Assembly: GCA_016303225.1 (NCBI GenBank)
Contig: JAEDMC010000002.1
Span: 1-39,173, forward strand
Source of the DNA: Kiritimatiellia bacterium
GTDB lineage: Bacteria > Verrucomicrobiota > Kiritimatiellia > RFP12 > UBA1067
Length of the DNA: 39,173 nucleotides
Direction: 5' to 3'
Shown here: positions 15,600-39,016 of the stretch, one piece after another
Position numbering within the stretch: the first letter of the stretch is position 1
How the letters are laid out: each line of letters begins with the position of its first letter
Program-made: the position numbers and the translations under genes
Notes under the pieces: generated by a model
Database searches by the model: none
The model's input: only the letters and a program-made list of their open reading frames with translations
Told to the model about the DNA's origin: nothing

Positions 15600-15655
15600 A
15601 TCGACCACCTTCTCCTTCGATTTGCCAACCATTATACTATATCCTGCTTCAAGGT

Positions 15656-22523: not shown

Positions 22524-25500
22524 TTACTGTACAATCTCCACCTTGTAGAAACCGCTGTTGAAGTCGACGCCGGCCAGCGGCACCTCGATCCGCTCGGTCA
22601 TCGTCGAGCCGTCAATCGTCACGGTCTCGGTCTTGACCGGATCACCCCAGTTCGCGGTGGCTAGGTTCTCCTTGCGGTAGACCTTGATCTCCACTGTCGT
22701 CGAGGTCGGAAGCTCGTAGATCGGCGAGAACAGGTAGCCCGCGATCGAATCGGTCGCCTTCGCGCCGATGGTCAGGATGACCTTGCCGTTCGTGCCGTTG
22801 CCCGCATCGACCACAAGCGAGGTGATCTTGACTGAGTTCGGCTCGATGTTCTTCTCGACCGCGCGGCGGATCGCGTCTATCGTCGACGTGTCGGTATCGC
22901 CGCCGATACCGAGCAACAGCCCCGCCGCCTCGAAGTTCTCGAACAACGTCAGCGTGGCGCCGGAGAGGAAGCGGGAGATGCCGGCCTTACCTTCAAGGAT
23001 GCCGTCATAAACGGTCTTCTTGAGGATAATCCGTCCCTCTGGATCGACCGAGGCGTCAGAGCGTCCGATCTCGTACTTGTCCGGATACTGGTACTCGTAT
23101 GCATCAGGCACCCAGTCACTGTCGGTGTCGGCATCCTCGATGTAAAGGCCGACGATCGGCGCAAGCTGGTTCAGCTTGACGGTGACCGGTTCTTTCACGT
23201 CTCCCCACGACTCCCACGGATCCTTCTTGAAGTTTCCGTTCGAGTCGATGTAAGCGCGGATGTAGTAGGTGCCGCTCTTGAGCCCGATCAGGCGTCCGTT
23301 CGCCCGGATGTCGGTGGCGTCCGTCAGCGCAAGCTTGTTCGTGACGAAGCCCTGCGCCGCAGGATCGCCGCTGAAATCGGGGCTCGTGAACGCCTGAAGG
23401 CGAACCTTGCCCTTGATCTCCGCAAGATTCTCGCACTGGCCGAGCACCGCCTCGGGCCCCGTGTACTTGACGGCCACGTCGATCGAGGAGTAGCCGTTGT
23501 CGCCGGTCTCCTGCTGCGTATCGACGGACGTGGAGAACGAACTGGGATCAGACCACACGTCGCCCGTAATCTTGGCGTTCGGCTTGAACTTAGCGTTGTA
23601 CATCGCCACGCGCCACTGGTAGTTGCCGGCCTTGGCGAAGACCTGGCCAAGCGACGTCTGGTCGCCGGCATAGATCGGCGCGGTCCAGACGAAGTTGCCG
23701 CTCCTGTCCTGCGCCGGCGCACGCATGACGTCAGATGTCCAGACAAGCTTGTTCAAGCTCGTATTGACCACCTGGATCCGGAACGCCGTATAGGACGAAC
23801 CGAAGCGCTTCGCATACGCTTCCTCGTCCGGCATCGACCAGACAAAGGTCGGACGCGATCCGTGGAGGACGGCTCCTTCGCGAAGTCCGATGGCCTTCGG
23901 CTTGGACCAGTTGCGCTCGAAGCGACGGGTGACGAGCAGCGGCTTGGCCGCATCGGAATCGTCGGACGCGCCGGAGGAAGAGCCCGACGACTCGCCCTCG
24001 GAGGCCAGCAGCGCCGTCACTCGATCGGAAGCGTTCGTCTGGTTCTTGCGCGTGAAGCCGACAGGTCCGTCGCCGAGCACGACGAGGTAGGACATGTTGG
24101 TGACCTCGTAGTGGTAGCCGGCGAGCGGCGAGGCGACCTCGCTCTTTAGGTACTGCCAGTCGATGTCGAACTCGTCGCTCGAAAGGAAGTCGGCTTCGCT
24201 GAAGCTGTCGTCGACGCCCCTCGTGAAGTCGCGGTCAAGCACGACGCGATTGGTCACGCCGCAGCTGTAGGTGAAGAACCCGTCCACCGCATAGCGGACG
24301 ACTCGGACGCGCACGGATTCCTTCTCCGGCAGCGTCAGCTCGAGGTTGAGCCCGCTGAACGTGCTCGAATCGGACGCCAGATTGCGGCTGTCATATTCGC
24401 CATACGTCTCTTTGTCAAAGTTGCTGGCCCGGTCGCTGATGCCGGTCCAGATGTCGACACGCGGCGTGATGGCGCTCATCGTCGTGAGGTCGATCCTGAG
24501 CTTCGCGCCATCCCAGCCGACGTCCACGTCGCGCGCGACACCGAACGGCTCGCCGGGCGTATACTCGCCGTTGCCATCGGAGTCGACGAACGCCACGAAG
24601 GTGTTGAGACCCTCGCGGACGTACCCGCCGCTGAGGCTCGACACGCTGCTGCCCGCATCGGAGAGGTAAAGCGTCTGGTTGAACGAGCCGAGCGTCGTGC
24701 AGGAGCTCCAGGTCACAATCACATAGCTCTGCTCAAGATTGAGGAGATCGTAGGTCGAATCGTCCTTCTCCTCCTGCTTCGCCTCGCCACCCTCGCCTTC
24801 GGCCACCGACTCGGTGTCGCCGAGCATCATGCCGTTCATGCGCTCCGCGTCGAAGTTGACCGTGACCTTTCCGGTCTTGTAGTCGACGGTGCCCACGGCC
24901 TGCTCGCCGGCGATGACGCCGCCGATCGTGTAGAGCACGCCCTCGCGGTCCTGCGCCTTGTAGTACCACTTCGCGTAATCGGGATCGCCGATCGACAGGT
25001 TCTCGATCTCGCCGTACTGGTCGAGCTTGGCGACGCAGTAGCTGAGGTCCTTGAAGGCAATCCGCACCGAACCGTGCTGGATCGCGCCCGGCCCGAGGTT
25101 GAACGTCCGCATGCCGTTCGGCTTGAGACCGACGTACTTCTGCGACGTATTCACTCCGACGGACGCCTGTTCTTCGGAGTTCCCGAGGTGCCAAACCGCA
25201 TCGGCCTTACCGGTCATGTTCGGATCGATCTTCTGGCTCCACGCCTTGATGACAACCGGTGCCGCGGCATCAGCCACGCCGGAACAGGTCAGGAAGGTCT
25301 CGATGCACGGCTCCGGATAGGCCGCGAGCACGTAACCGTCGATGCCGACGTCGGCCTCCGTCTCGGGATCCGTCCCCGCTTTAGCCTCTGCCCAGTTGGA
25401 CCAGCCGTCGCCGTCGTCATCGCGCGACGGATCGTAGGCGTAGCGATTGGCGGAGCCCGGATACGCGCTCTCCCAGATGTCGTTCACCTGGTCGTGGTCG

Positions 25501-28500
25501 GTGAAGATCTCGCCGACGTAGAGGTCGCCCATCTTGCGGAAGTAGTCGATGCAGTACCCATCCGTCTTCGGGTTCCTGGGATCGAGCTTCGCGTATCCGA
25601 ACACTTCGCTGATCAGGTACTCCGCGTAATTCGAGAGACCATCGCCGTCGGCGTCCTTGCCCGCGTCATCGCCCTTGAGGCAATACTGGTAGGCGTAGTA
25701 GTCAATGACGCCGTCGTTGTCGGTGTCGAGATTCCACGGATCGGTCGGCAGGTGTCCGCCGTCGTACTCGTCGAGCAGCGTGAGGCCGTCACCGTCCGGC
25801 GAAGCGAGGCGCGCGTCGTTGAAGTTCCACGGGCTGATCTTCGCCTCGGCGAGCGCGCAGCTGCCGACACCGTTGGGGCCGAACATCACGTAGAGCTCCC
25901 AGCCGTCGGCGATGCCGTCCTTGTCGTTGTCGGGATCGAGCGGCTTGAGGGTCAGGTCCTTCCACTGCTGGCCCGGCGTCAGATTGAGGTTCATCGTCTC
26001 CTCGCTCGCGAGGCCGGCCGCCTCGAGGTAGCGCACGAGCAGGTACTTGTCGAGCGCCGTGAACGCCTTCGAGTGCTCGCCCGCACCGGTCGCAACGTCC
26101 GGCTCGAAGCCGAACGCGTCGTAGACCTGGCCGTGCACCAAGACGACCGTGCCCTCGCCGACCTGCGCGACGCGGTAGAGCTTGCCCGCTTCCGCCACGA
26201 GCGTGACGTTCGTGCCGAGGCCGACGCGGGCCTGCAGCTCACCGCCGACGCTGACCTCGTAGGTGTAGGTCTCGAAGAGCGGCAGACCGACCGCCGTGTC
26301 GCCGCGGACCGGCTTCTTCGCCACGTCCTCGCCGAGCACATAGACCGTGACGTCCGCCGGATCGTCCGTGTTCTGCACGGTGACGAGCGTCGCCTCGACC
26401 TCCGCATAGGCCATCCAGTCGCCGTCCGTGACCTCGTCGGCATCATAGAAGCGCGGATCCAGCCCCGCAAACTCCATCTCCCAGCCGTCGGGCATGCCGT
26501 CGCCGTCGGTGTCCCACAGCGTCGAATCGGTGCCGAAGCCGTTCTCCTCGTCGTCGGTGAGGCCGTCCTTGTCGCCGTCCAGCGCGCCGGAGCTGTCGCC
26601 GCCGCCGGTGAACTTCTCGGACTCGAGACAGTCGGGGATCTCGTTGCCGTTCAGGTCGCAGTCCTCGATGTAGATCGTGCAGGTCGGCACCTGGACGAGC
26701 GAGTCGACAATCCCGACGCCGACTGGGTTGTAGATCGCCGCCACGCTCTTGCCGACCGAATTGACATAGCCCCAGCTCTCCCAGTTGTCGCGCTTGCCGT
26801 TGTTGTTCTGGTCGATGTACGCACGGAGGTACACCGTGCCCGGCTCAATGCCCTTGAGGAACGCGTTCGTCGTCGTGATGTCGGTGATGGAGTCAATCGC
26901 CGCGACGTCCGCGATGCGCGTACGCGCCACCGGCTCGCCCGTGAAGTCGGCGTTCTCGAACGCCTCCACGACGATCATGCCCGCGAGGACGTTCGTCGGC
27001 CCGTAGTAGCGGACCGCCGCCGCCACGCTGCCGTAGCCCGTCGCGAACTGCGCGTAGCGGTTCTTGTTGCCGACGTCCATCTGGAACTTGCCGAACTCGC
27101 TCCAGCACGCCGGGTCGGACGTGTCGTTGAACTTCGCGTTCATCAGCGCCACGCGCCAGACGTAGTTCGAGCCGTCGTGGAAGACCGTCGAACCGTTCGT
27201 CGTCACCGCGCAGTCGGCGTAGAGGGCCGGCGTCACCGTGTAGGCGTACTCCCCGACGCCAAGGCCCTGGCGCGCCGGCAGAATCCGCACGCCCGAGTCC
27301 CAGACCTTGTCGACGCCGTTCGCCGCGAAGACCTGGATCTCATAGGCCGTCATCGTGTCGTCCGAGCTCGAGAACGCAAAGGTCGGACGCGCCGCGTAGA
27401 CCGGCTTGTCCTGCGCCGGCGCCTTCACGACCGGCTTCGAGCGCTGCGTATTGAACTGCCGCGAGAAGCAGCCGACGACGCTGTTCGAGGTGCTGCCGTC
27501 GGCACCCTTCGTCACGCGCTCGACCGTATAGCCGACGGTGCGGATGTCCTTGAGCTCAAGACCGAGTTTCTCCGTCGCGTCCGTGACCAGCCACTTCCAG
27601 TCGAGGTCGCAGACGTTGCCGCTCAGAATGTCCGCCTCGGTGAGATACGCGCGATCGTCCAGCACCACCGTGCGCGTCGCGAGCTGCCGCTGCGGCACCG
27701 TGACGTCGTTGATTTCGGACTCGCCGTTGATCGTCACGCGGCGGATCACGAACTGTGCCTCGCCGCTGCCGCCGCCAAGCGACTGGCGCGTCAGCGCGAC
27801 GCCCTCGTCCTTCAGCTCGATCGCCAGCTCCGGCACCTTATGCCAGCCGATCTCCACGTTCTTGAGGACGCCGTAGGGCTCGCCGTCGCTCCACTGTCCG
27901 TTGCCGTCGAGGTCGAAGAACGCCTCGACCGTGTTGAGGCCTTCCTTCACGCGGCCCTTGCCGACCACCTGACCCTGGCCGAATTCCTGCGTGTCGGAAA
28001 GCCAGACGGCCTGCGGCCAGTTCTCGCCGATGTGCGAAGCGTAGGTGACGCGCAGGATGCTGCTCCCGAGCTTGTCGCCATCTTCGTCGCTGACCGCGAG
28101 CTTGCCCGTGTCAAGGTCCCACTCGCCGGTCCTGAGGTCAATCGTGCCGATCTCCGTCGCCGTCGCGCTGTGGATGATCTTCGCCGTCGTGCCCGCCGCG
28201 TCGCTCACAGAAGTCGCGAACGCCGTCCACTCGAGCTCGCCGCCCGTGAGCTCGATGTGCGGATACCGGAGGAGATACCACTTGTACTCCTCGAACGTGC
28301 CGCTGGAGGCGACACCCTGCGGGACCTCCTCGTACCACTCCCAGCTCCAGGTGTAGGTGCGGTCGCTGGAGGTGAGCGCCTTCTCAAAGACGACGGAGCT
28401 CGGCTGCACCGAACCGGGGCTCATGAAACCGCGCATGACGGTCTCCTCGCGGAAGCCGCCGACGAACTTCGTCGCGCCACCGGCCTCGTGCGAAACGATG

Positions 28501-31500
28501 AACGTCGCATCGACGCGCGGCGAGATGCCCGTCCAGGTGCGGACGACGAGCGGAACGCCCTTGACGTCCTGCGCACCGTAGTAGTAGGGCCGGATGCCGA
28601 TCGCCGGCTCCGGATAGCTGACGCCATGCATGTCGTTGTCCATGTAACGGTCGATGAAGTCGGCGACGTAGTTGCCGCCCCAGAGCGCCGCGCGGCACTC
28701 CGCGAAGTTCGACCAGCCGTCCTCGTCCGCGTCAAGCTGCGGATCGTAGACGCCGGTGTTGACGAACGTGTTCTTGTACTGCTTCTCCCACCAGTTTTCC
28801 ATGAAGTCGTGGTCGGTCGCGATCTCGCCGAGGTACTCGTGCGAGTTGAAGTGGCGATGGATCTTGCCCTTCGCGTCGACCGTCACGTTGCCCGGTATCG
28901 CGTCCGCCTCCGCCGGACCCGGCAAGAAGTAGTCGACCACCAGCTGGTCCTTGCCCGAACGCGCCTGCGTCGGGTTGAGGAGCGGGAAGCCGTTGTCGAT
29001 GCCGTACGGGGCCGAACCGAACGAAAGCAGGTATTCGGCGTAGTTGGAGAGGCCGTCGTTGTCGGAATCGTCCTCGGCGCCATACTGCGCGACGCCCCAG
29101 AGGTTCTCCCACCAGTCGGGGATGTTGTCGCCGTCGACGTCAGCGGTCGAGGCGTAGGCCGAATCGAGCGTGCCGTCAGGCTGCAGGCCGCGGGCGAGGT
29201 CGATGAGGTAGGCCTGGTAGGCCGCCATCTCGACGCCGAGGTAGTTGATCGCCGTATCCCAGTTCAGCGGAATCTCGGGATCGAGGTCCGGGCAGTAGTT
29301 CTCGCGGGCATACTCCTCCCACCAGTCGGGAAGTCCGTTGCCGGCCGCGTCGACCTGCGTCTGCTCCCAGGCGTCGGCCGGCGAGCCGTCGTCCCACATC
29401 TGCGGACAGGTCTTCGCGTACGCGCCGCCGAGCGGCAACAGGTCGGTCGTGCCGATGAAGCGGCTGCGGATGTCGTAGCGGTACATGTTGAGGATCGGCT
29501 CGTAGGTGTCGCCGCCCAGGTTGAAGAGCCGGTTCAGGGTGAAGAGCTTGACGTAGCGGTCAACCCAGTAGTTGGAGCACGGATACGGCATCGCATCGTT
29601 CGGGAACACGAACTTGTTGACGCCGTTCGTCATCGCCGGGGTGTAGTACCCGCCGAGCTGTTCGGAGAAGAAGAAGTCGTCAATGCAGCTGCCGTCCATC
29701 ACCGGCAGGTGCGAGACCGTGTTCTCGATCCACGGCACGACGCGCGCGTCGCTGTAGACCGTGCTCCTCAGGCCGCAGCTCTCCCACCAGCCGACGCCGA
29801 TGCCGCCCTTGAACTTGTAGGAGCCGGCCTGGCCGTCCTTGAGACCGCGCGGATCGGTGAGGCCGTGCGTGTTCATGTCGGGGTTGCGCGACGAGAGGTA
29901 GTCGTTCTCGGCCTGCTGCGCGACCGCCTTATCGAAACCGCCCGGCAGCTTCGCGACGTCGGCCGCGTTCACCGCGCCCGGCATCGTCACGAAGTTGTAG
30001 TGGTGCAGGAGCTCGGCCGGCAGCATCGCCTGGCCCGAGGCGTCGTTGCGCGTCGCACCCTGCAGCCAGGACTGGTAGACCGTCGTGCGGTTCGCCTCGA
30101 CGTCCGCAAAACTCATGCGCGAGCGGTAGTTCGACAGAATCTCCGAACCGGAGCGCGCGCCGTCCCAGATGCGCACTTCGTCGACATAGCCGTTGAAGTA
30201 CTCGCCCATGTTGGCGAACGACTCGACGTGCTCGCCGTTGCGGACGAAGTACGGATAGAGCGGCACCATGCGGTCCACGGTGTTCTTCGTGTGCTTCGGA
30301 CGCGCGCCGACGTAAAGCGCCACCGCCCGACCGCCGTACTGGTATGCCGGGAAGCGCGAGGGATCCGTCGGATCCTGTCTGATCTGCGTGACGCCATTCG
30401 CCGGAATGAGAGAGGTCGGCTCCTGCTTGCAGAGATCGCCGTTCACGTAGAGCTTCAGCGCCTTGCCGTCGTAGGTGAGGGCGACGTGCGACCACTTGGC
30501 GAGCGGCAGCACGAGACCGTCGACGCGCATGCAGCTCAACGGCTGGTTGAGACCCGACTGGATCGAGTCGTTGTTGTCGAACATGCCGTAGACGCGGCCG
30601 TCCGCCGCGAGGCCGATGCGGAAGTTCGCGCGAATGGCGCCGCCCGCCTTCGTGATCGCATCGCCACCGTAGTAGGAGGAGCGCTCGATGATCGTCTGGT
30701 CGGCACCCGTCTTCTCCGGCCTGACCCACGCCTCGACCGTGAACTGCTTCAGCAGGTCGAGGGCGTCGACGCCGCGGTACTGCAGGTCACGCGACATCAC
30801 ATACGCGTCCTTGCCCGGGAAATACATCGCCTGACGGCGGTCCGGATCGCTGAAGTTCAGCGGCGAGGACATGGTCTTCACCGTCTTGACGATCTCGCGG
30901 CCGTCGGGCTGCCAGTCGTTGTCGGTATCGTAGCCTTCATTCTCCTCGAAGGAGAAGAGGTAGGCGGAATTCGCCTTCTCCATGGCGACGAGGTAGTAGT
31001 TCTCGCCCGCGATGCCGACCGCGTTCGGGTTCAGCCAGAACGGCAAGACGGCGACCGTCGAATCGACAGCATAGTACTGCGACACGTAGCTGTTCGCCTT
31101 CGACGTGTCAGTCATCCACAGCGGCGTCGGGTCGGTGTGGCTCGCCTGCGGACTCGCCTGATTCGCGACAATGCGCTCGTCGTCATTGCGGAGGCCGTCG
31201 CCGTCGGGATCGGCCGCCCAGCAGCCGATCGCCCACGGATAGAGCACCGGGTCGTATGCCATCGGCGCGGTGATCGGCATCTTGCGGTTGCTGGTCGGGA
31301 TCTGGGCGTGGAACGCAAGATAACGGTTGTAGTCCGGATGAGTCCACTCGTTCCAGTAGGCGTTGTAGAAGACCGGCATACCATAGGCCTTTGCAATCAC
31401 GTCCTTGCTGCCGGCCGCTTCGGGATCGGCGCCCAGGAGCGGGTTGAGCCCGTGGAAGAGTTCGTAGAAGTCGTCCATGCCGTCGCCGTCGGAGTCGGCC

Positions 31501-34500
31501 TTTTGCGGCGACGTCGAGACATACTTGCCGTACACCGCCGGACGCATGTAAGTCTTCCAGTCGATATACATCGCGTTGTAGTGGCAGACGATGCGGTCGA
31601 AGCCGTAGGTCACCGGCGCCATGTAGCCGAGCGCCTCCCAGCCCTCGTCCGTCCACGGATGGCTGTACCGGAAGTTGATCGCCTCGCCCGGATGCGCGGC
31701 GAGCCACTCGGCGTCGTTCATGTGCTTCAGGACGAAGTCGGCCTCCGACCCGAGCAGGAGGTTCGTCGTCACCGTCACCGTGAAGTTCGTGGAGATGACA
31801 TGCGTGTACGGGTTCTCCGTCACCACCATCGCGTTCGTCTTCGTGTGGATGCTGAGGACGTCCGTGTCATACCACGTGGTCGCCGCCTTGAGGCAGAATT
31901 CGTGCGCGCTCTGCATCATCGGCGTGAAGTCGAGGAAGTTCTGCTGATGGTACGGCCCCTCCTCGAGGACACGGCCCATGAGCGGGGTCGAGATGTCGTC
32001 GTAGCGGAAGTGGCGGACGGCCTGGACGAGGTATTCCTGCCAGTTCTGGAGTCCGTCATGGTCCCAGTCGACGTCGCGGTTCGTGCCGGTGAGCGGGTCG
32101 TAGGAATGGCTCAACCTGGCCGGCATGTCCAGCGGATCGGTGTAGGCGTCGCCGCCCCACGTCGCGTCCATGCCGTCGATGATGATGACGCCCGTAAGCG
32201 ACTTGCCGAGGATGCCCGCGGCGAGACGGCGCGCGTCGAAGAACGTCGGGTCTTCGCGGACGCTCGCCCACATTCCGGCGCCGACGCCCGGCGGCATCTC
32301 GTCCGGCTTCACGTAGTTGTTCGCCGCCATGTCGTACGGCAGGCCCGCGAACTGCATTTCCCACGCGTCGGGCAGGCCGTCGAGGTCGGTGTCGGCCGTG
32401 AGCGGGTTCATGCCGCCGCCGCGGATGCAGGTCGAGTTGTCGTCGGTCGGCTGGCCGTAGATGAAGCTCAGGCCCTCGAGAGCCTCGCTGCCCTCGTCGT
32501 CCGCATAGCCGATGACGACCCAGCTGCTGCCTTCCTGTCCGTCATAGACGCCGTCGGCGTCGGTGTCGCCGTTGTCCGGATCGGTCGGGAAGAACTTGTT
32601 GTACCAGCCCTTCGCCTTGCCCGGATGGTTCTTGTAGATCGACTCGCAGCTCTTGTAGGCGTTGCACGAGTCGGTGCCCGCGAACTCCGCCGCATAGGTG
32701 AGGACATCGTCGTCAATGTCGGTCGGCAACATGAGCCTGGACGGTCCCTCGGAGATCGGATCTTCCTCTTGGCCGAAAGCCGTGCACGGGTTGCGGTAGG
32801 TGTAGAGCTCCCAGCCGTCCGGCACGCCGTCGCCGTCCGTGTCGGCGCCGTGCACCTGGATGACGCCCTTGTCCGGCTTGCCGGCTTCCTTGAAGGCCTG
32901 CGCGATCAGCTCGGCGAGCTTGCTGTTCGCCGACTCGACGTCGTTCGTGCCGGCCGTCCCGACGTCGTTCGTGCCCGACGCCTCCGCGTACACCGACGGC
33001 ACCGTGGTCTTCGAGGCGATGTAGCCCCAGGTGTCGCCGGACTCCTTGATCTGCTCGCCCGGATAGACGATGCTGAAGAGCGAGCGGTAGCGGCCGAGCA
33101 GGTACTCGTCATACGCCGCGTACGGGATCGTGTTGATCGACTTGCCCGTCGCGCCCTCGCCCTCCTCCCAGCGCGAGCCGACGAAGCGATTCTGGTTCCT
33201 GAACCAGCCCGTGCGCGGATCGAACCCGAAGATCGAACGGACCTGGTCGTGGAGCATGATAAACGGAATGGGATAATCGCCCTTCATCGGACCGCTCTGG
33301 TAGATCTTCTCGCCCGCCTTGAAGGTGCGGGTCACCCACCAGGTCTCCAGCGACCACTTCGGGTTCTGCGTGAAATTGTAGTACCAGATCACCGGATTCT
33401 TGACCGGATCCTGCGGCATGTCTTCCTCGCGACCATAGGCCGTCATCGCGCCGTCCTGCCAGAACGGTCGCACCACGAGCGCGCGAATCGTCTTGGTCTG
33501 CGTCATCACGTAGACACCCGGTTCGCCAGGGGCCGGACGGAAGTCCCAGTCCTCAATGAGCTGCCCGCTGACGTCGAAGTACCAGTTGGTCTGGATCTCG
33601 AAGACGCCCCTCTCGATCTCGACCTCCTCGCCAATGGCTTCAGTGCCGAAAAGGCCCAGCGTCGTGAACGCCGCCATGAAGTCGCCGTCGGCGTTCGCCG
33701 CCTTGTCGCTCGTGCTCTGCGGGTCGAGGCCCATCATGACCTCCCACGCGTCGCACATGTGGTCGCCATCCGTGTCCCAATGGCAGGGATTCGTGCCGAT
33801 CAGGTATTCCTCGTAGTCGGAAAGACCGTCGTTGTCAAAGTCGCCCGGCGCCTTCTCGCCGCGCGGCTCGCACGGATTGAAGTGAGCCTCGACCTCGGTG
33901 TTGGTGATGGCCGTGCCGAAGATGAAGCTCTTCGCGTTAAAGCGCTCGAAGACATAGGACTGGCCGTTGACGGGCTTGGCCGTACCCGCCGGCACGGTCA
34001 CGTGGGCGAGGTACCAGAAGTAGTATTCCCAGCCGTCGGAGAAGTGGTCGCCGTCGGTATCGTCCGTCGTCGGATCCATCCGGACGCTCTCGCCGGTCGG
34101 TTCCGGGCTCCAGCGCGACAGGTCAGGCGTCCAGAACGGATCGTCGTCCGCCGGCGGATTCGCCGGATCATAGTTCGCGTCGTTCGCGATCAGCCACGCC
34201 TTCCACGCGGCGAGCTCGTCCTTGCTGAAGTCGGCGTCGGACTTGAGGTCGTCCTTCGCGTTGAGGCCCGGCTCGAAGCCGCGCAGCTCGCGGACCGTCG
34301 TGAACGCATGGCCGATCGGCGCATAGCTCTTCTGAGACGCCTGGACGAGCGCCATCTCGCCCTCGACCCTCCAGACGCCCGGCAGGTAGTCCTCGTCGGG
34401 GTTGGTCTTGGCGAGGTCCTTGAGGTCCGCCACGTTGCCGACGGCATCACCGTAGATGAGCTCCAGGAGGTTCACGCCCGCGCCCCTCCAGACCTTCATC

Positions 34501-37500
34501 ATGTAGATGTCGGGGATGCCGTCCCAGTTCATGTCGCCGCCGTTGTCGGCCGGGTACTTCTCCTTCGAGAAGAGCACCCCGACCTCTGTCGCCTTGTAGC
34601 TCGACTTGTTGCCGCCCTCGTTGTCCAGGTCGAAGAACTGGTCCGCCAGCGCGGACGGCGACTTCTTCGGATCCGGCGCGCCGACCGTCCCCTGATGCGT
34701 CTCGGGATCGACCGTGACCCAGGCGTAGAAGTAGTTGTCGTTCTCGCCCGAGTAGTCGTAAAACTCCGTCGCGCCCACCGCCGCAACGTTGCCGTCGGGA
34801 TCGAGCGGCACGCCGGAGATGCCCGTGATGAGCTTGCCGTCGTCATACGCCGGCGACTCCGCGGCCGGATAGCCCGCCGCGTAGACGTGCGCCTGCTGCG
34901 CGCCTTCGTTGTAGTACCAGGTCTGCTGGAACTGGAGCGACAGGTACTTGCCCGTGCCGTCGGTCGCGTAGACGTGGCCGCGGCCGAGGCCGTCCTGCGT
35001 CAGGTACCGCGTCACCTTCAGCTTCTCGGCAGGACCGGTCGGCGTGAGGATGACCTTCTTCGTCGGCACGACCCTGATCCAGAACGTGTACGGAACCGCC
35101 GAACCGCCTTCGCCGTCGTCCGCCGTGACCGTCACCTCGGTGAGCGCTGCGTCGGGAACCACGAACGTGAAGGTGCCCTTCGCCGTCGAATTCGCCGTGC
35201 TGCCGACGATCGGCCAGCCGTTGGTCAGCGTCATCTGCGTCTGGCCGCCCTCGTCGAAGATGCCCGTCCAGCCGACCGTGAAGTTGCCGTTCGTGAGGTC
35301 GTTGGCGATGTCCTTCACCGTCCACTGCAGCGTCACGCTCTCGCCCGCCGTCCACGTGTTCGTCACGCCGAAGCTGATGCCCGCCTTCGCCGACGAGAGC
35401 TTCAGGTCGTACGGGGCGATGTTCTGCACCGCAAACAGCACCGTCTCGCTCGGCGAGTACCAGTCGCTCCACGCGATGTCGTAGGAGTTGTGCTTGTCGT
35501 TCGTCGTCACGCGCGCCGTCGCCTCGAAGTACGACGGATTGTCCATGCCGCCGTTGATGTTGCTCATGTCGAAGCGGACGATCTTGCCGGCCTTCGCCTC
35601 GGCCTTGGACTTGAAGAGGATGTTCGTCGACGTGCTGAGGTCAAGCGCGAGGCGGCCCGCGTCGCCCGCAGTCTTCTTGAGCGTCACCTTCACCGCAAGC
35701 GGATTCGCGCCTGAAATCGCCTTCTCGCCGGCCGCATGGTCGTTCGGCGCCGGGAAGTCCGTCAGCTTCACCGTGAAGTAGGCGCCCTGCTGGCCCTCGT
35801 TCTCGTTGAAGACCCCGTCCGGATGCTCCGGCGCATACTCGATCACCACCGCCGGAGCCTCCTGCACCGTCACCGTGAACGAGCCGAGGAGATGCTTCGA
35901 CGCGTCGATCTCCTCGCCGACCGCCTGCTGGTCGCGGTCAATCGCGTAGATCCGCACCGTCTCCGTGCCCGCCGCGCCGAAGTAGACGTCGAACGTGCAG
36001 ACGCCGTTCGTCGCCACGACCTGCGTCTGTTCGTATGGCGCGTTCTTGCCCTCGACGTAGTTGCCGCCCGCATCCAGCATCACCTTCGTCGTCGCGTTCG
36101 TCGCGTCAATGAGACCGAGGTCCTTGATCTTGACCGTGAACGTCACCGGATAGTCAACCGCCACCTGGCCGTCGTAATGGCCCGTCGTCTGGCCGTCCTC
36201 GATGATGCGGTCGAGGTCCTCCCAGCTGCCGCGGCGGACGCCCGCGAGCTGCGGCGCCGCGTTCGTCACCGTCAGCGTCTCGGCGTACGCGAGCGGCTGG
36301 TAGTTCAGCGTCGAGACCGGTGCGCCGGACTCCGTCGTGAGCCGGACGCCGAACTCGATCTCCGTCGAGCCCTTCTCGTTGCCGTCCAGGAGCTTCACCG
36401 GCAGGTTCGCCGACATTTCCGCGTCCTTCTGGATCTTCACCGGCTCGGTGTACGCCGCGGCGTCGATCAGGTTCGAGCTCACCGAGCCCTTGCCCGTCGT
36501 CAGCGGCACCAGGTACGCGAGCATCGTCTCGCCCGCCTTGACCGGCTTGCCGTCCTGCTCGAGGACGAAGCGCACGTTCAGCTCGTCGCCTTCGCAGAAG
36601 CGGCTGCGCAGGTCGCGCTCCGCGCCCGTCTCGTTCGTCTTGAAGAGGGCCGGCTTCACCGTCGGGATGGCCGGACGCTTCTGCACCTCGAGCGGCACCA
36701 CGAGCGTCGAGGCGTTGCCGACCGGGTCCTTCACCGTCAGCGTCGGCTTGTAGCTCTCGTCCTTCGTCAGGTTCGTCGGCAGCTTCAGCGTGAACGTCAC
36801 CGTCTCGCCGTCGACGAACACGACGTTGTTCGACGTCTCCATGAAGCCGCCCGAGACGCTGACCGTGTAGCCCTTCTCCTTCGCGAAGTTGAGGTCACGC
36901 CAGTTGTCCTGCACCATCACGTCGAACGTCACCGTCTCGCCCTCCATGCCGGTGAGCGGCAGCGACGTCGGCACCGTCACGGCCGGGGCCTGCTTGTCGG
37001 TCACCTTCACGGTCGAGGTCTTGTGCGTGCCTTCGGAGAAGAACGTCTCGGCCCCCGCCGGCGACACCACCTTCGGCGTCATCTCGATCTGCGGCGCCTT
37101 CAGGTCCGCACTCGGCAACACGCCGAGACCGCACACGTAGAAGATCACCTCGGTCTCGCCCTTCGGCACCACGACCGAGCTGACGCCCGCGCCCGTGTCG
37201 CCCACGTCGTCGCGCGAACGGAAGATGCGGATGACGTTCGTCGCCAGCGGATCGATGGCCGCAAAGTCCTTCACCGTCGGCTGGAGCGCCACCTCGACGT
37301 CGGCGTCCTTGTACGGCGAGGAGAAGCGCACCTTCATCTCGGTCACGTTCCACCAGTTCGTCGTCGCCGAAACCGCAATCGAGTTGTTCGGGTTGCCGAC
37401 CGAGTCGGTGACCGACATGTACGGCTTCGGCGCCTTGATGACGCGCACCGTGCGCGTCACCGTCGAGTCCTCCAGGAAGTCGCCGACCTGGTTGTAGCTG

Positions 37501-38549
37501 CCGCACGGCTGCGAGCTCATGTAGATGGTCGCCGTCGAGTTCTCCGCCGCGCTCCCGCCCTTCAGCTTGAACGTCGCGCGCGTCTCGCCCGGACCGATCG
37601 CCACCTTCAGGCAGTTCGTGCCGTTCACGACCTCGATGTCCGCCGGATTGTCGCTCGCGACGTCGAATACCGTCGCGTCGCCGGACCACACCCAGACCGT
37701 CGCGCCCTCCTTGCCGCCCGCGCCCTCGATCGCCGGCGCCGTCGTGACGAAGTCGGTGATGTCGGGATAGACGTCGCGCCACACCGTCGGATCGGTCGGC
37801 GACGTGCCCGCGTCAAAGTCGATCGCCTGCACCTTCAGGTTCGCCTTCGAGAGCGAATAGTCGACGAACGGACCGCCCGCGTTCGGCGCCTGCGGCACGT
37901 TGTCGGGATGGTTGTCCTGGTCGATGAAGTGGCAGCTCGCGAGATCGCCGTCGTCATTCCGGAGGTCCCACAGGTAGTCGGCGGAAAGGACCTTCGTGTT
38001 CACGTTCGGGAAGAGGTAGTCGGAGTTCTTCACGCCGCCCTGGTCGGGAACCTCGCCCTGGTAGTTGAGAAGCTTGATCGGGAGCCCCAGGTCGCCCGGC
38101 TTCACCGTGTAGCAGAAATAGAGGTCGGTGTAGTAGGGGTACGTCGGGTTCTGGCCGCTGATCTGACCCGCCACCGGGCCGACCTCGACATACTCCGCCG
38201 CATCGATGCGGCCACCCACCGAGATGCCGATCTTCGGCGGCTGATACACGAGCTGCAGCTTCTCCAGCGCCTCCGGAGACGTGTCGTGCAAACGGAACTT
38301 CCAGGTCTTCGCCGGATACGTCACGGGATCGCCCGAAGTCTGCAGCCAGCCCTTGTCGACCAAACGCACAAGGAAGTAGGCCTTCTCGCCCACGCCCAGG
38401 TTGCGCGTGTAGTCGACGCCAGCATACTTCACCGGCTCAATCGAGCTGATGTCGCCGTTCGCGTCACGCCCCGCAAAAAGGGCAAACGGCATCGCCAACG
38501 CGGCAACCGCAATCGTCGTGATCTTGACCATGGATTCCTTGATCTTCAT
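22524..38549 (-). CDS. Giant secreted multidomain protein (5,341 aa from ATG 38549; ORF open to 38603): beta-rich N-terminal third, a core rich in TSP3-like Ca-binding motifs, a LamG/ConA-like domain, a duplicated module of about 700-780 aa, and a C-terminal tail ending FYKVEIVQ
   Basis: This is a single uninterrupted frame of 5,359 codons. ATG 38549 has GAGGAG 7 nt upstream and gives the signal peptide MKIKESMVKITTIAVAALAMPFALFA. Many DxDxDG motifs are present, for example DTDGDHFSDGWEYYFW, DFDNDGLSDYEEYLIGTNPCHWDTDGDHMCDAWE, DTDGDGVPDGWELYTYRNP, DTDLDGLPDAWEMQFAGLP, DSDGDGMDDFYELFHGLNP, DTDGDGMPDGWEMEFAGLDP and DADGDGLSNYAEYLISE. Codon usage is uniformly GC3-rich throughout. Confidence 0.9.
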   Translation of the reverse strand: MKIKESMVKITTIAVAALAMPFALFAGRDANGDISSIEPVKYAGVDYTRNLGVGEKAYFLVRLVDKGWLQTSGDPVTYPAKTWKFRLHDTSPEALEKLQLVYQPPKIGISVGGRIDAAEYVEVGPVAGQISGQNPTYPYYTDLYFCYTVKPGDLGLPIKLLNYQGEVPDQGGVKNSDYLFPNVNTKVLSADYLWDLRNDDGDLASCHFIDQDNHPDNVPQAPNAGGPFVDYSLSKANLKVQAIDFDAGTSPTDPTVWRDVYPDITDFVTTAPAIEGAGGKEGATVWVWSGDATVFDVASDNPADIEVVNGTNCLKVAIGPGETRATFKLKGGSAAENSTATIYMSSQPCGSYNQVGDFLEDSTVTRTVRVIKAPKPYMSVTDSVGNPNNSIAVSATTNWWNVTEMKVRFSSPYKDADVEVALQPTVKDFAAIDPLATNVIRIFRSRDDVGDTGAGVSSVVVPKGETEVIFYVCGLGVLPSADLKAPQIEMTPKVVSPAGAETFFSEGTHKTSTVKVTDKQAPAVTVPTSLPLTGMEGETVTFDVMVQDNWRDLNFAKEKGYTVSVSGGFMETSNNVVFVDGETVTFTLKLPTNLTKDESYKPTLTVKDPVGNASTLVVPLEVQKRPAIPTVKPALFKTNETGAERDLRSRFCEGDELNVRFVLEQDGKPVKAGETMLAYLVPLTTGKGSVSSNLIDAAAYTEPVKIQKDAEMSANLPVKLLDGNEKGSTEIEFGVRLTTESGAPVSTLNYQPLAYAETLTVTNAAPQLAGVRRGSWEDLDRIIEDGQTTGHYDGQVAVDYPVTFTVKIKDLGLIDATNATTKVMLDAGGNYVEGKNAPYEQTQVVATNGVCTFDVYFGAAGTETVRIYAIDRDQQAVGEEIDASKHLLGSFTVTVQEAPAVVIEYAPEHPDGVFNENEGQQGAYFTVKLTDFPAPNDHAAGEKAISGANPLAVKVTLKKTAGDAGRLALDLSTSTNILFKSKAEAKAGKIVRFDMSNINGGMDNPSYFEATARVTTNDKHNSYDIAWSDWYSPSETVLFAVQNIAPYDLKLSSAKAGISFGVTNTWTAGESVTLQWTVKDIANDLTNGNFTVGWTGIFDEGGQTQMTLTNGWPIVGSTANSTAKGTFTFVVPDAALTEVTVTADDGEGGSAVPYTFWIRVVPTKKVILTPTGPAEKLKVTRYLTQDGLGRGHVYATDGTGKYLSLQFQQTWYYNEGAQQAHVYAAGYPAAESPAYDDGKLITGISGVPLDPDGNVAAVGATEFYDYSGENDNYFYAWVTVDPETHQGTVGAPDPKKSPSALADQFFDLDNEGGNKSSYKATEVGVLFSKEKYPADNGGDMNWDGIPDIYMMKVWRGAGVNLLELIYGDAVGNVADLKDLAKTNPDEDYLPGVWRVEGEMALVQASQKSYAPIGHAFTTVRELRGFEPGLNAKDDLKSDADFSKDELAAWKAWLIANDANYDPANPPADDDPFWTPDLSRWSPEPTGESVRMDPTTDDTDGDHFSDGWEYYFWYLAHVTVPAGTAKPVNGQSYVFERFNAKSFIFGTAITNTEVEAHFNPCEPRGEKAPGDFDNDGLSDYEEYLIGTNPCHWDTDGDHMCDAWEVMMGLDPQSTSDKAANADGDFMAAFTTLGLFGTEAIGEEVEIERGVFEIQTNWYFDVSGQLIEDWDFRPAPGEPGVYVMTQTKTIRALVVRPFWQDGAMTAYGREEDMPQDPVKNPVIWYYNFTQNPKWSLETWWVTRTFKAGEKIYQSGPMKGDYPIPFIMLHDQVRSIFGFDPRTGWFRNQNRFVGSRWEEGEGATGKSINTIPYAAYDEYLLGRYRSLFSIVYPGEQIKESGDTWGYIASKTTVPSVYAEASGTNDVGTAGTNDVESANSKLAELIAQAFKEAGKPDKGVIQVHGADTDGDGVPDGWELYTYRNPCTAFGQEEDPISEGPSRLMLPTDIDDDVLTYAAEFAGTDSCNAYKSCESIYKNHPGKAKGWYNKFFPTDPDNGDTDADGVYDGQEGSSWVVIGYADDEGSEALEGLSFIYGQPTDDNSTCIRGGGMNPLTADTDLDGLPDAWEMQFAGLPYDMAANNYVKPDEMPPGVGAGMWASVREDPTFFDARRLAAGILGKSLTGVIIIDGMDATWGGDAYTDPLDMPARLSHSYDPLTGTNRDVDWDHDGLQNWQEYLVQAVRHFRYDDISTPLMGRVLEEGPYHQQNFLDFTPMMQSAHEFCLKAATTWYDTDVLSIHTKTNAMVVTENPYTHVISTNFTVTVTTNLLLGSEADFVLKHMNDAEWLAAHPGEAINFRYSHPWTDEGWEALGYMAPVTYGFDRIVCHYNAMYIDWKTYMRPAVYGKYVSTSPQKADSDGDGMDDFYELFHGLNPLLGADPEAAGSKDVIAKAYGMPVFYNAYWNEWTHPDYNRYLAFHAQIPTSNRKMPITAPMAYDPVLYPWAIGCWAADPDGDGLRNDDERIVANQASPQASHTDPTPLWMTDTSKANSYVSQYYAVDSTVAVLPFWLNPNAVGIAGENYYLVAMEKANSAYLFSFEENEGYDTDNDWQPDGREIVKTVKTMSSPLNFSDPDRRQAMYFPGKDAYVMSRDLQYRGVDALDLLKQFTVEAWVRPEKTGADQTIIERSSYYGGDAITKAGGAIRANFRIGLAADGRVYGMFDNNDSIQSGLNQPLSCMRVDGLVLPLAKWSHVALTYDGKALKLYVNGDLCKQEPTSLIPANGVTQIRQDPTDPSRFPAYQYGGRAVALYVGARPKHTKNTVDRMVPLYPYFVRNGEHVESFANMGEYFNGYVDEVRIWDGARSGSEILSNYRSRMSFADVEANRTTVYQSWLQGATRNDASGQAMLPAELLHHYNFVTMPGAVNAADVAKLPGGFDKAVAQQAENDYLSSRNPDMNTHGLTDPRGLKDGQAGSYKFKGGIGVGWWESCGLRSTVYSDARVVPWIENTVSHLPVMDGSCIDDFFFSEQLGGYYTPAMTNGVNKFVFPNDAMPYPCSNYWVDRYVKLFTLNRLFNLGGDTYEPILNMYRYDIRSRFIGTTDLLPLGGAYAKTCPQMWDDGSPADAWEQTQVDAAGNGLPDWWEEYARENYCPDLDPEIPLNWDTAINYLGVEMAAYQAYLIDLARGLQPDGTLDSAYASTADVDGDNIPDWWENLWGVAQYGAEDDSDNDGLSNYAEYLLSFGSAPYGIDNGFPLLNPTQARSGKDQLVVDYFLPGPAEADAIPGNVTVDAKGKIHRHFNSHEYLGEIATDHDFMENWWEKQYKNTFVNTGVYDPQLDADEDGWSNFAECRAALWGGNYVADFIDRYMDNDMHGVSYPEPAIGIRPYYYGAQDVKGVPLVVRTWTGISPRVDATFIVSHEAGGATKFVGGFREETVMRGFMSPGSVQPSSVVFEKALTSSDRTYTWSWEWYEEVPQGVASSGTFEEYKWYLLRYPHIELTGGELEWTAFATSVSDAAGTTAKIIHSATATEIGTIDLRTGEWDLDTGKLAVSDEDGDKLGSSILRVTYASHIGENWPQAVWLSDTQEFGQGQVVGKGRVKEGLNTVEAFFDLDGNGQWSDGEPYGVLKNVEIGWHKVPELAIELKDEGVALTRQSLGGGSGEAQFVIRRVTINGESEINDVTVPQRQLATRTVVLDDRAYLTEADILSGNVCDLDWKWLVTDATEKLGLELKDIRTVGYTVERVTKGADGSTSNSVVGCFSRQFNTQRSKPVVKAPAQDKPVYAARPTFAFSSSDDTMTAYEIQVFAANGVDKVWDSGVRILPARQGLGVGEYAYTVTPALYADCAVTTNGSTVFHDGSNYVWRVALMNAKFNDTSDPACWSEFGKFQMDVGNKNRYAQFATGYGSVAAAVRYYGPTNVLAGMIVVEAFENADFTGEPVARTRIADVAAIDSITDITTTNAFLKGIEPGTVYLRAYIDQNNNGKRDNWESWGYVNSVGKSVAAIYNPVGVGIVDSLVQVPTCTIYIEDCDLNGNEIPDCLESEKFTGGGDSSGALDGDKDGLTDDEENGFGTDSTLWDTDGDGMPDGWEMEFAGLDPRFYDADEVTDGDWMAYAEVEATLVTVQNTDDPADVTVYVLGEDVAKKPVRGDTAVGLPLFETYTYEVSVGGELQARVGLGTNVTLVAEAGKLYRVAQVGEGTVVLVHGQVYDAFGFEPDVATGAGEHSKAFTALDKYLLVRYLEAAGLASEETMNLNLTPGQQWKDLTLKPLDPDNDKDGIADGWELYVMFGPNGVGSCALAEAKISPWNFNDARLASPDGDGLTLLDEYDGGHLPTDPWNLDTDNDGVIDYYAYQYCLKGDDAGKDADGDGLSNYAEYLISEVFGYAKLDPRNPKTDGYCIDYFRKMGDLYVGEIFTDHDQVNDIWESAYPGSANRYAYDPSRDDDGDGWSNWAEAKAGTDPETEADVGIDGYVLAAYPEPCIETFLTCSGVADAAAPVVIKAWSQKIDPNMTGKADAVWHLGNSEEQASVGVNTSQKYVGLKPNGMRTFNLGPGAIQHGSVRIAFKDLSYCVAKLDQYGEIENLSIGDPDYAKWYYKAQDREGVLYTIGGVIAGEQAVGTVDYKTGKVTVNFDAERMNGMMLGDTESVAEGEGGEAKQEEKDDSTYDLLNLEQSYVIVTWSSCTTLGSFNQTLYLSDAGSSVSSLSGGYVREGLNTFVAFVDSDGNGEYTPGEPFGVARDVDVGWDGAKLRIDLTTMSAITPRVDIWTGISDRASNFDKETYGEYDSRNLASDSSTFSGLNLELTLPEKESVRVRVVRYAVDGFFTYSCGVTNRVVLDRDFTRGVDDSFSEADFLSSDEFDIDWQYLKSEVASPLAGYHYEVTNMSYLVVLGDGPVGFTRKNQTNASDRVTALLASEGESSGSSSGASDDSDAAKPLLVTRRFERNWSKPKAIGLREGAVLHGSRPTFVWSMPDEEAYAKRFGSSYTAFRIQVVNTSLNKLVWTSDVMRAPAQDRSGNFVWTAPIYAGDQTSLGQVFAKAGNYQWRVAMYNAKFKPNAKITGDVWSDPSSFSTSVDTQQETGDNGYSSIDVAVKYTGPEAVLGQCENLAEIKGKVRLQAFTSPDFSGDPAAQGFVTNKLALTDATDIRANGRLIGLKSGTYYIRAYIDSNGNFKKDPWESWGDVKEPVTVKLNQLAPIVGLYIEDADTDSDWVPDAYEYQYPDKYEIGRSDASVDPEGRIILKKTVYDGILEGKAGISRFLSGATLTLFENFEAAGLLLGIGGDTDTSTIDAIRRAVEKNIEPNSVKITSLVVDAGNGTNGKVILTIGAKATDSIAGYLFSPIYELPTSTTVEIKVYRKENLATANWGDPVKTETVTIDGSTMTERIEVPLAGVDFNSGFYKVEIVQ
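23088..25421 (-). repeat. Giant-gene internal module, copy B (DDDGDGWSNWAE ... IEDADTDSDWVPDAYEYQ)
   Basis: Shows the same ordered blocks as copy A, for example FVAFVDSDGNGEYTPGEPFGVARDVDVGW, SRPTFVWSMPD, NYQWRVAMYNAKFK, YYIRAYIDSNGNFKKDPWESWGDV. The copies are divergent at the protein level, and I saw no obvious DNA-level identity. Confidence 0.75.
26622..28733 (-). repeat. Giant-gene internal module, copy A (DADEDGWSNFAE ... IEDCDLNGNEIPDCLE)
   Basis: Shares ordered blocks with copy B: D-x-DGWSN-x-AE; YPEP; REGLNT/KEGLNT V-x-AF-x-D-x-DGNG-x-(5)-GEP-x-GV; RPTF-x-(W/F)S; Y-x-WRVA-x-(M)-NAKF; AV-x-Y-x-GP; F-x-(2)-DF-(T/S)-G-(E/D)-P; Y-(L/I)-RAYID-x-N-x-N-x-K-x-D-x-WESWG; IED-x-D. Confidence 0.75.
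30100..30760 (-). other. LamG/Concanavalin-A-like (Laminin_G_3-type) domain within the giant protein
   Basis: FTVEAWVRPEKTGADQTIIERS ... KWSHVALTYDGKALKLYVNGDL ... GYVDEVRIWDGARSGSEILSNYR is the classic Laminin_G_3 pattern. Coordinates come from locating the reverse complement of these peptides. Confidence 0.7.
32937..32975. repeat. 24-bp-period in-frame direct repeat in the giant gene (GTNDVGTA GTNDVESA)
   Basis: gacgtcgttcgtgcc occurs at 32937-32951 and again at 32961-32975. Confidence 0.8.
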
Positions 38550-38560
38550 ATCTCTACTCC

Positions 38561-38938: not shown

Positions 38939-38987
38939 AGAGACCAAGAGACACTACTCCCAGTCAATCATGCGATATGATATCAAA

Positions 38988-39016
38988 ATTATGTTGATAA
39001 AATCAAGTGTTGTCAA
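38988..39016 (-). promoter_or_regulatory. Sigma70-type promoter: TTGACA, 17-nt spacer, CATAAT, upstream of the lipoprotein and giant genes
   Basis: The minus strand reads cttgTTGACAacacttgattttatcaaCATAATtttgatatc. The -35 box is at 39016-39011, the -10 box at 38993-38988, and the spacer is exactly 17 nt. The first ATG of the lipoprotein gene lies about 45 nt downstream. Confidence 0.5.

Follow-up and report, generated by a model that had tools for sequence, protein, structure and literature searches.

What is the product of a 16-kb bacterial gene for? The question is raised by a 39,173-nucleotide (nt) stretch of DNA from a Kiritimatiellia bacterium (contig JAEDMC010000002.1 of assembly GCA_016303225.1; the whole stretch is called the window hereafter), in which a single minus-strand gene encodes a secreted protein of 5,341 amino acids (aa). 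On balance, we think that this giant protein is probably an adhesin or fibre of the cell surface that is exported through Sec, stiffened by calcium and not enzymatic. This reading is supported by its domain content, as all recognizable parts are of binding or structural types: thrombospondin type 3 (TSP3) loops, a LamG jelly roll and modules resembling macroglobulin (MG), fibronectin type III (FN3) and immunoglobulin (Ig) domains. An earlier sequence-only reading had also suggested a cell-surface fibre, adhesin or matrix protein. Export, the non-enzymatic appearance and a beta-sandwich/TSP3/LamG make-up typical of fibres and adhesins agree with it, while the surface location itself is a prediction.

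The open reading frame (ORF) extends over positions 22524..38603 with zero internal stops, according to the ORF listing and translation. Its likely start is the ATG at 38549, preceded by a ribosome-binding site (RBS), GAGGAG, 7 nt upstream. The N-terminus (MKIKESMVKITTIAVAALAMPFALFA, followed by GRDANGD) reads as a Sec-type signal peptide, and whole-sequence hydrophobicity revealed no other transmembrane-like or hydrophobic segment. The mature protein is acidic (pI 4.45), with a mass of ~582 kDa. Public assemblies of the locus were located through the sequence of a neighbouring protein; the giant gene encodes 5,340 or 5,341 aa in three independent metagenome assemblies (ERZ28614145, ERZ13405069 and SRR25936201), and a fourth (SRR17241522) carries a 5,197-aa allele. 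No long near-identical DNA repeats occur within the gene, the only repeats being TSP3-coding motifs of 30–60 nt with 60–80% identity. Since the same gene is present in independent assemblies and lacks long repeats, assembly collapse or chimerism is unlikely. The uninterrupted frame with its RBS and signal peptide, as first read from the sequence, is confirmed.

Only two Pfam families matched the giant protein above threshold, TSP3_bac (PF18884, E 5.8e-11) and Laminin_G_3 (E 3.6e-20), in addition to a weak match to DUF2141. The strict calcium-loop pattern DxDxDG..D..E was found 17 times, against 0.035 matches in shuffled sequences, and a looser pattern 22 times, against 0.6. More than 15 such motifs had been attributed to the core; this number is correct for the whole protein and slightly too high for the core, as 13 of the 22 loose matches lie within aa 1350–3285. 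Invariant columns of the core in the family alignment are mostly D, N, G, P and W. Motif scans returned zero instances of HExxH, the CxEQ thioester and RTX GGxGxD, and the protein contains no catalytic Pfam or NCBIfam domain, credible nucleophile elbow, Rhs or toxin domain, or transmembrane helix; nor did the Pfam scan detect an SLH or other S-layer anchoring domain. The absence of catalytic motifs had been recognized from the sequence alone.

The LamG jelly roll was likewise recognized early and is supported by both the Laminin_G_3 match and a confident structural model. AlphaFold prediction of aa 2340–3140 (24-sequence alignment) gave a mean predicted local distance difference test (pLDDT) score of 60.8 and was confident only at this jelly roll, the TSP3 stretch ahead of it yielding no confident model. 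Foldseek matched the jelly-roll model to the LamG-like domain of PAPP-A (E 3e-11), pentraxins, CBM40, the jelly roll of botulinum neurotoxin Hc and a Bacteroides carbohydrate-binding protein. Every one of these matches is a ligand-binding fold. A family profile of aa 1401–3980 matched the PDB through the LamG part only, for which the best PDB sequence match was the S-layer-domain protein 4qvs. A phmmer search of PDB sequences with three overlapping thirds of the giant protein retrieved no match.

Self-BLAST of the unchunked protein returned only the trivial match, and two module copies emerged with chunked masking. The sequence-only reading had described two divergent modules of 700–780 aa; there are indeed two, 25–35% identical, but both are longer than proposed (Table 1). 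The model of aa 4275–5341 (mean pLDDT 67.6) consists of TSP3 loops, about five beta-sandwiches, a low-confidence helical linker and a final beta-sandwich. Two beta-sandwiches of the second module contain DUF2141-like loops (D.[DN]GNG...[DE][PS][FW]G). Foldseek retrieved MG/FN3/Ig arrays for the module model, namely complement C5, CD109, alpha-2-macroglobulin, the pilus adhesin PitA and fibronectin. The N-terminus had been described as beta-rich with no motif that could be named. Consistent with this, a weak-threshold scan of the N-terminal 1,560 aa returned only sub-threshold Ig-like matches (Big_3_3, DUF11 and Big_13) and otherwise noise. However, the region does align to the N-termini of relatives at 22–34% identity, some of which carry PKD domains, and a single close homologue (43% identity) was found. 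The alignments suggest that the N-terminal region is probably an array of Ig/PKD-like beta-sandwiches.

Proteins of this size had been called rare, but this one is no isolated case. Homology searches were run with three sub-regions of the giant protein. The core (aa 1401–3600), searched through a word index, retrieved 206 proteins, typically of 2,500–3,850 aa, with matches reaching E = 0 and 30–44% identity. An exhaustive HMMER search with aa 4275–5341 (1,067 aa) detected at least 653 cluster representatives (clusters at 50% identity) at E≤1e-3, and 309 at E≤1e-30. Many of these representatives are 4,000–7,774 aa long, with up to ten matched stretches each, and the length range of the family is 2,500–7,774 aa. 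In local BLAST comparisons, relatives were colinear with the window protein over the core, module and C-terminus, and they have the same layout: a signal peptide, a variable N-terminus, a core with LamG, one or more modules of ~850 aa made of beta-sandwich domains, and a C-terminal tail. Most relatives so compared have one module, the window protein has two, and some members have several. Considering this family of colinear relatives of similar or larger size, the window protein is an ordinary-sized member and not an outlier.

Relatives from Kiritimatiellae metagenome-assembled genomes (MAGs) are named 'LamG domain-containing' or 'PKD domain-containing' and are otherwise hypothetical; some additionally carry PKD and VWA domains, and the cluster-member names examined for ten relatives were not informative. 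A genome scan yielded 220 tblastn-confirmed relatives, from which the 80 best loci were retained, most of them in MAGs that bear the label Kiritimatiellae or the older labels Verrucomicrobia or Lentisphaeraceae; the sources of the scanned loci are the gut or rumen of human, yak, goat, sheep, cattle and deer. Cluster mates of the proteins neighbouring the giant protein are labelled Kiritimatiellae bacterium, and one relative of the secretin is named Candidatus Colisoma. Two terminal signatures mark the family. A GDIxxI-type motif just past the signal peptide is present in 95 of the 173 full-length relatives, compared with 3% of random 70-aa windows, and G-F-[FY]-[KR]-[VI] lies within the last ten residues of almost every complete member. 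The window protein has both (ALFA/GRDANGDISSI and GFYKVEIVQ, the slash marking the inferred cleavage site), the second including the FYKVE tail noted before. A literature search found no published description of a Kiritimatiellae giant LamG/TSP3 family, although giant TSP3-containing proteins in bacteria of the Planctomycetes–Verrucomicrobia–Chlamydiae (PVC) group have been noted (PMC12057145; bioRxiv 10.1101/2023.11.21.568195). A giant calcium-binding adhesin-like protein is a known kind of protein; to our knowledge, however, the giant family itself is undescribed, as are its lipoprotein partner, the motifs at both termini, the C-terminal domain that it shares with other proteins, and its allelic cassette.

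This cassette emerged from comparisons within the species. Loci L001, L003 and L004 contain near-identical copies of the giant gene: the L001 protein is 98.5% identical to that of the window, and L003 and L004 are 98–99% identical in DNA, with 99.6% and 95.4% identity, respectively, over the C-terminal 900 aa. In L002 and L006, by contrast, the last ~985 aa (from about aa 4357) are only ~40% identical in protein, despite 97–99% identity of the flanking DNA and 100% identity of the Amuc_1102-like protein. The two C-terminal alleles resemble each other no more closely than they resemble the copies of other species (37–53%). Such divergence between near-identical flanks is the pattern expected of an exposed tip that is selected or recombining, and it is the strongest indirect support for surface exposure.

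Directly upstream of the giant gene lies a small gene whose stop codon is 11 nt ahead of the giant ATG. Its product has an N-terminal hydrophobic segment, a lipobox and a helical part with LP.AD..LKA.L.KD.EW..L, and it has no Pfam match. This gene and the promoter in front of it had been pointed out from the sequence; the lipobox reads LPGC, and the promoter is a near-consensus match only; three promoter-like sites turned up, compared with 0.3 expected from shuffles. With an HMM of four copies of the partner, a homologue was detected immediately 5' of the giant gene in 34 related loci, and the majority of these homologues have a lipobox. These loci include distant relatives whose neighbours are otherwise different, and the lipoprotein–giant gene pair is kept family-wide.

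The C-terminus of the giant proteins is not exclusive to them. Comparison with hhalign of the family C-terminal profile and the C-termini of unrelated exported proteins indicated a common domain of ~100 aa (probability 92.7%, E 4e-7), a beta-sandwich with a [FY][FY][KR][VIL] strand. One of these proteins is the Flg_new-repeat protein of the window, and its orthologues in three other species also carry the domain (L090:14349-16964, L091:16410-19613 and L092:15317-18337). The same domain type was found in a 1,569-aa protein following the giant gene in L079 (L079:13033-17743) and in proteins encoded upstream of the giant gene at the starts of L036, L040, L055, L056, L069 and L086. Direct BLASTP between the C-termini of the giant and Flg_new proteins was not significant, the likeness appearing only in profile–profile comparison, and the C-terminal 122 aa matched no Pfam or NCBIfam model, including those for the C-terminal domains (CTDs) of the type IX secretion system (T9SS), even at E≤10. 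It may be a lineage-wide sorting or anchoring domain.

If the giant protein is an adhesin or fibre, it could work as follows. The lipoprotein gene would be co-transcribed and, given the 11-nt gap, probably translationally coupled with the giant gene, and after Sec export the lipoprotein might hold or guide the giant protein at the envelope. The ~22 TSP3-type loops, going by known TSP3 behaviour, would take up calcium and thereby give the chain the form of a stiff, extended stalk. The fold classes of the jelly roll and the beta-sandwich modules suggest surfaces that bind ligands, the likely ones being glycans, host material or particles. The distal C-terminal module would be the most exposed part, its deeply divergent alleles resembling those of a tip under diversifying selection by phage, immunity or ligand choice. 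Finally, the C-terminal beta-sandwich ending in GF[FY][KR]V may serve outer-membrane passage or anchoring.

Several points weigh against this proposal. The Foldseek template-modelling (TM) scores of the module are low (0.06–0.11) and show simply a string of beta-sandwiches, although low scores are expected for a beads-on-a-string architecture. The models leave roughly one-third of the chain structurally unassigned, namely the first 1,350 aa together with TSP3 stretches and portions of the core, and a cryptic enzyme or toxin domain might be accommodated there. The role suggested for the lipoprotein derives from gene adjacency. The divergence of alleles could result from recombination with other species instead of selection on an exposed tip. 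Lastly, no TpsB, T9SS or type I secretion system (T1SS) component that would take a 582-kDa periplasmic intermediate across the outer membrane is visible in the window.

Table 1. Positions of the giant gene, its parts and neighbouring features in the window
Feature	Position	Strand	Remarks
Giant gene	22524..38549	-	5,341 codons plus stop; GAGGAG RBS
Sec-type signal peptide, aa 1-26	38472..38549	-	Sequence reading; cleavage after ALFA inferred
N-terminal motif GDISSI of mature protein	38439..38456	-	Family pattern G-[DN]-[IVL]-x-x-[IVLF]
Variable N-terminal region, aa ~38-1350	34500..38438	-	Probably Ig/PKD-like beta-sandwich array
Conserved family core, aa ~1350-3136	29142..34499	-	TSP3-type loops between W/Y/F-rich conserved segments, plus LamG
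LamG/pentraxin-like jelly roll, aa ~2573-2851	29997..30833	-	Pfam Laminin_G_3, model, Foldseek
Module copy 1, aa 3137-3978	26616..29141	-	Self-comparison; single-module relatives align here
Inter-module stretch, aa 3979-4274	25728..26615	-	TSP3 loops repeating part of core
Module copy 2, aa 4275-5154	23088..25727	-	TSP3 loops, then ~five beta-sandwich domains
Allelic hypervariable cassette, aa ~4357-5341	22527..25480	-	Strain comparison
C-terminal beta-sandwich domain, aa ~5240-5341	22527..22832	-	Ends GFYKVEIVQ
Small partner gene	38561..38947	-	Up to 128 aa, LPGC lipobox
Sigma-70-like promoter match TTGACA-17-CATAAT, 11/12	38988..39016	-	Consensus match alone; 5' of lipoprotein gene
Amuc_1102-like	19392-20072	-	Context
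PilM/PilN-like fusion	17772-19382	-	Context
Amuc_1100-like	16768-17781	-	Context
371-aa Zn-ribbon/TSP3 protein	15656-16771	-	Context
Secretin	12396-15659	-	Context
918-aa Flg_new-repeat exported protein	9477..12233	-	C-terminal domain of same type, ends LFYKVETIQKQD

At the domain level, the thrombospondin signature domain is closest to the window protein. This signature, reportedly described by Kvansakul et al. in 2004, combines a calcium 'wire' of TSP type 3 repeats with a C-terminal lectin-like beta-sandwich. As in thrombospondin, runs of DxDxDG..D..E loops adjoin a concanavalin/LamG-type jelly roll in a non-enzymatic-looking, predicted extracellular protein, which suits adhesion or matrix functions. 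Unlike thrombospondins, the window protein is bacterial and about five times larger, its loops are spaced by long aromatic-rich conserved segments, its jelly roll is Laminin_G_3, and it has beta-sandwich modules and a C-terminal domain of its own; its TSP type 3 repeats are of the bacterial variant (TSP3_bac) only. Thrombospondin proper was rejected, as Pfam detected no TSP_C, EGF repeats or coiled coil. Among bacterial TSP3_bac envelope proteins that act in adhesion are CglD (a gliding adhesin lipoprotein) and MtsD (cell–cell cohesion) of Myxococcus. VWA domains are found both in CglD and in some members of the giant family. The window protein itself is no lipoprotein, the lipobox being on the separate upstream gene. 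An equivalog of CglD or MtsD was ruled out, with NCBIfam scores of 17–28 bits against cut-offs of 400–800 and matches restricted to the TSP3 loops.

In logic, SprB and the RTX adhesins come closest. With SprB and RemA, T9SS cargo of Bacteroidota, the window protein has in common its giant size, an N-terminal Sec signal peptide, a repetitive body rich in beta-sandwiches, a C-terminal beta-sandwich of ~100 aa that other exported proteins of the same organism also carry, and a small dedicated neighbour gene (sprF there, the lipoprotein gene here). It differs in belonging to a PVC host and not to the Fibrobacteres–Chlorobi–Bacteroidetes (FCB) group, and its partner is a helical lipoprotein instead of a PorP/SprF barrel. 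T9SS cargo was rejected, no match to TIGR04183, TIGR04131 or Por_Secre_tail being found in the C-terminal 122 aa at E≤10, and neither the 39-kb window nor the partial relative loci contain T9SS genes. The T1SS-exported RTX adhesins LapA, SiiE and MpIBP resemble it in size, in a calcium-stiffened beta-sandwich stalk with a distal ligand-binding region and in surface adhesion, here a prediction. However, RTX adhesins have no Sec signal peptide and carry RTX nonapeptides plus a T1SS signal at their C-termini; this class was rejected for the window protein, which has a Sec signal peptide, zero GGxGxD motifs and no HemolysinCabind match. PilY1-type pilus tip adhesins are also Sec-exported, contain calcium-binding loops and have VWA domains in some members, as in the giant family, and their genes frequently lie near those for type IV pili; the window protein is 4–5 times larger than PilY1. 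A PilY1/PilC adhesin was excluded by the lack of a PF05567 match and by a neighbourhood with only ackA, pta and PilM/secretin-type genes and no minor pilins. Two further candidates were discarded: a two-partner secretion exoprotein (TpsA), with no Pfam match, Haemagg_act included, in the N-terminal 450 aa and no Omp85-type/TpsB gene in the window, and an alpha-2-macroglobulin/complement thioester protein, with no CxEQ and only MG-like beta-sandwiches at TM 0.08–0.1.

The family is of wider relevance because Kiritimatiellae are common, uncultured inhabitants of the human, pig and ruminant gut, and these functionally unannotated giants are their largest gene product; an identical sequence of the Amuc_1102-like protein was seen in 1,181 data blocks. 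Should the giant protein be the chief adhesin on their surface, what they attach to (such as mucus, plant particles or other cells) would be set by the LamG and beta-sandwich modules, and the allelic cassette, which differs between strains, would serve well to mark selection by phage or host. The lipoprotein partner and the shared C-terminal domain provide testable handles on how PVC bacteria export half-megadalton proteins, and could show what the Amuc_1098-1102 cluster, a subject of applied interest in Akkermansia, really does.

That cluster is at the centre of the alternative that survives best, unlikely as we consider it: the giant protein could be a cargo, tip or accessory adhesin of an Amuc_1098-1102-like PilM/secretin machine, leaving through the secretin after Sec export, with its C-terminal domain or TSP3 loops as a putative recognition element, by analogy with a type II substrate or a PilY1-like pilus adhesin. 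The Amuc_1098-1102 cluster has been connected with pili-like structures (PMC5332112). The placement of the giant gene upstream of a secretin, noted from the sequence, was verified: downstream and co-directional with it are ackA, pta and the genes for the Amuc_1102-like, PilM/PilN-like, Amuc_1100-like, 371-aa, secretin and Flg_new proteins. From lipoprotein to secretin the genes have short gaps, and no terminator-like site was found on their strand between the giant gene and Amuc_1102. The order giant gene, ackA, pta, Amuc_1102, PilM, Amuc_1100, 371-aa protein and secretin recurs in ~55 of 79 genome loci, and persists where the giant C-terminus is only 28–33% and Amuc_1100 25–39% identical. Proteins with the shared C-terminal domain are encoded on both sides of the cluster. 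The 371-aa protein, conserved in position among relatives, comprises an N-terminal membrane segment, a zinc-ribbon-like CxxC...CxxC motif and a TSP3-type loop (DADEDGLPDAWE) of the same type as those of the giant protein, with a sub-threshold match to Pfam TSP3_bac (E 0.0021).

Nevertheless, part of this synteny is clade collinearity, and perhaps much of it, as two of the three fuller contexts keep CoaE together with Rho and, by Pfam matches, UvrA. Housekeeping genes (ackA and pta) separate the giant gene from the cluster, and more distant family members retain the lipoprotein partner with no secretin cluster beside the giant gene. The window contains no pilin, PilB or PilC gene, and Pfam found no PilY1 beta-propeller domain in the giant protein. 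Moreover, we know of no precedent for a type II secretion substrate of 582 kDa. A functional link between the giant protein and the secretin cluster is thus possible but unproven from gene order. A more far-reaching version, which we regard as speculative, is that the C-terminal beta-sandwich might be the sorting domain of an undescribed Kiritimatiellae pathway, possibly of wider PVC distribution, through an Amuc_1098-type secretin with PilM, Amuc_1100 and Amuc_1102 partners. By analogy with T9SS CTD cargo and SprF-type adaptors, the 'pili-like' cluster of Akkermansia would then be a giant-adhesin secretion machine and the lipoprotein a cargo-specific adaptor, which is an equally speculative suggestion.

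Doubtful, too, is a secreted matrix or coat protein, that is, a biofilm scaffold or a loosely attached S-layer-like network crosslinked by calcium, in place of an adhesin that is anchored to the cell and has a specific ligand. An acidic protein rich in calcium loops, with no membrane anchor once its signal peptide is cleaved, would suit such a role. The TSP3 protein MtsD acts in cohesion in Myxococcus, although the MtsD and CglD matches are far below the NCBIfam cut-offs, and the best PDB match of the LamG region is the S-layer-domain protein mentioned above. On the other hand, a conserved motif at the N-terminus and a lipoprotein partner point to a definite attachment site, deep allelic variation restricted to one end is more in keeping with a polar molecule that exposes its tip than with a lattice, and S-layer anchoring domains such as SLH are lacking.

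An enzymatic or toxic activity hidden in the core or N-terminus, for example in polysaccharide degradation or contact-dependent attack, is improbable. Despite strong conservation, much of the core has no known match, an M4 peptidase/MAM protein follows the giant gene in some relatives, and published proposals assign attack or degradation roles to giant proteins of Omnitrophota and further PVC lineages (bioRxiv 10.1101/2023.11.21.568195; PMC12057145). However, the scans described above revealed neither catalytic domains or motifs nor transmembrane helices, Rhs or toxin domains, and the invariant residues of the core are typical of calcium loops and packing and not of catalytic sets. A zinc metalloprotease in particular was rejected for want of HExxH.

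That the gene is an artefact of assembly, a fusion of ORFs or a pseudogene, and is not made as a single product, is very improbable and largely refuted, since the disrupted copies in L005 and in L008, a close relative in which the gene is seemingly split into four calls, stand against full-length copies in independent assemblies, hundreds of colinear relatives of comparable or greater length, the lack of long repeats, and the presence of an RBS, a signal peptide and conserved termini. In L005 (ERZ28613632), a duplication or insertion of ~100 nt breaks the giant frame at ~6151-6252 of that locus, corresponding to window positions ~23770-23820, which may reflect either a genuine pseudogene allele or a fault of the assembly. 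The gene caller annotated the antisense frame there in place of the broken sense frame. In the window, this antisense frame is a stop-free ORF of 3,546 aa inside the giant gene, at 25074-35714 (+), whose existence almost certainly stems from the GC-rich, Asp/Gly-rich codon usage.

Some further observations concern the neighbourhood of the giant gene. In the distant members L007 and L009 and one more contig, the giant gene is followed by a gene for a MAM/He_PIG protein of ~1,500 aa, one with an M4 peptidase domain; distant members also encode a sigma-54 activator/FHA pair upstream of the giant gene, in surroundings unlike those of the window. The PilM/PilN-like protein fuses a PilM_2 domain (aa 9–345) to a membrane/coiled-coil C-terminal part that looks like PilN, giving 536 aa, and the same length was found in the relatives checked. 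The secretin contains a long, repetitive Ala/Glu/Lys-rich N-terminal region and a Ser/Gly/Asn-rich insert. Its identity between strains is 90–99%, with an unalignable patch in L002 and L006, and that of the Flg_new protein is 84–97%, falling to 32% in L006; several envelope proteins at the giant locus are therefore strain-variable.

Toxin–antitoxin or mobile-type genes (FitA/PIN, HipA, PDDEXK_3 and AAA_14/DUF4143) lie between the secretin and the Flg_new/CoaE genes in L090, L091 and L092 (L090:13733-14343 and 17026-18526, L091:13508-13873 and L092:13414-14589), at a spot where the window has a gap of 162 bp. Finally, UvrA, encoded at 4317-7295 (-), carries an odd low-complexity insert (TTQTTQTSQTTQTSQTSQT) and, in addition, two copies of a ~30-aa insert (EDFRRKTED..G.G.ETLDGRQGL.SQVSS) that are untypical of UvrA.

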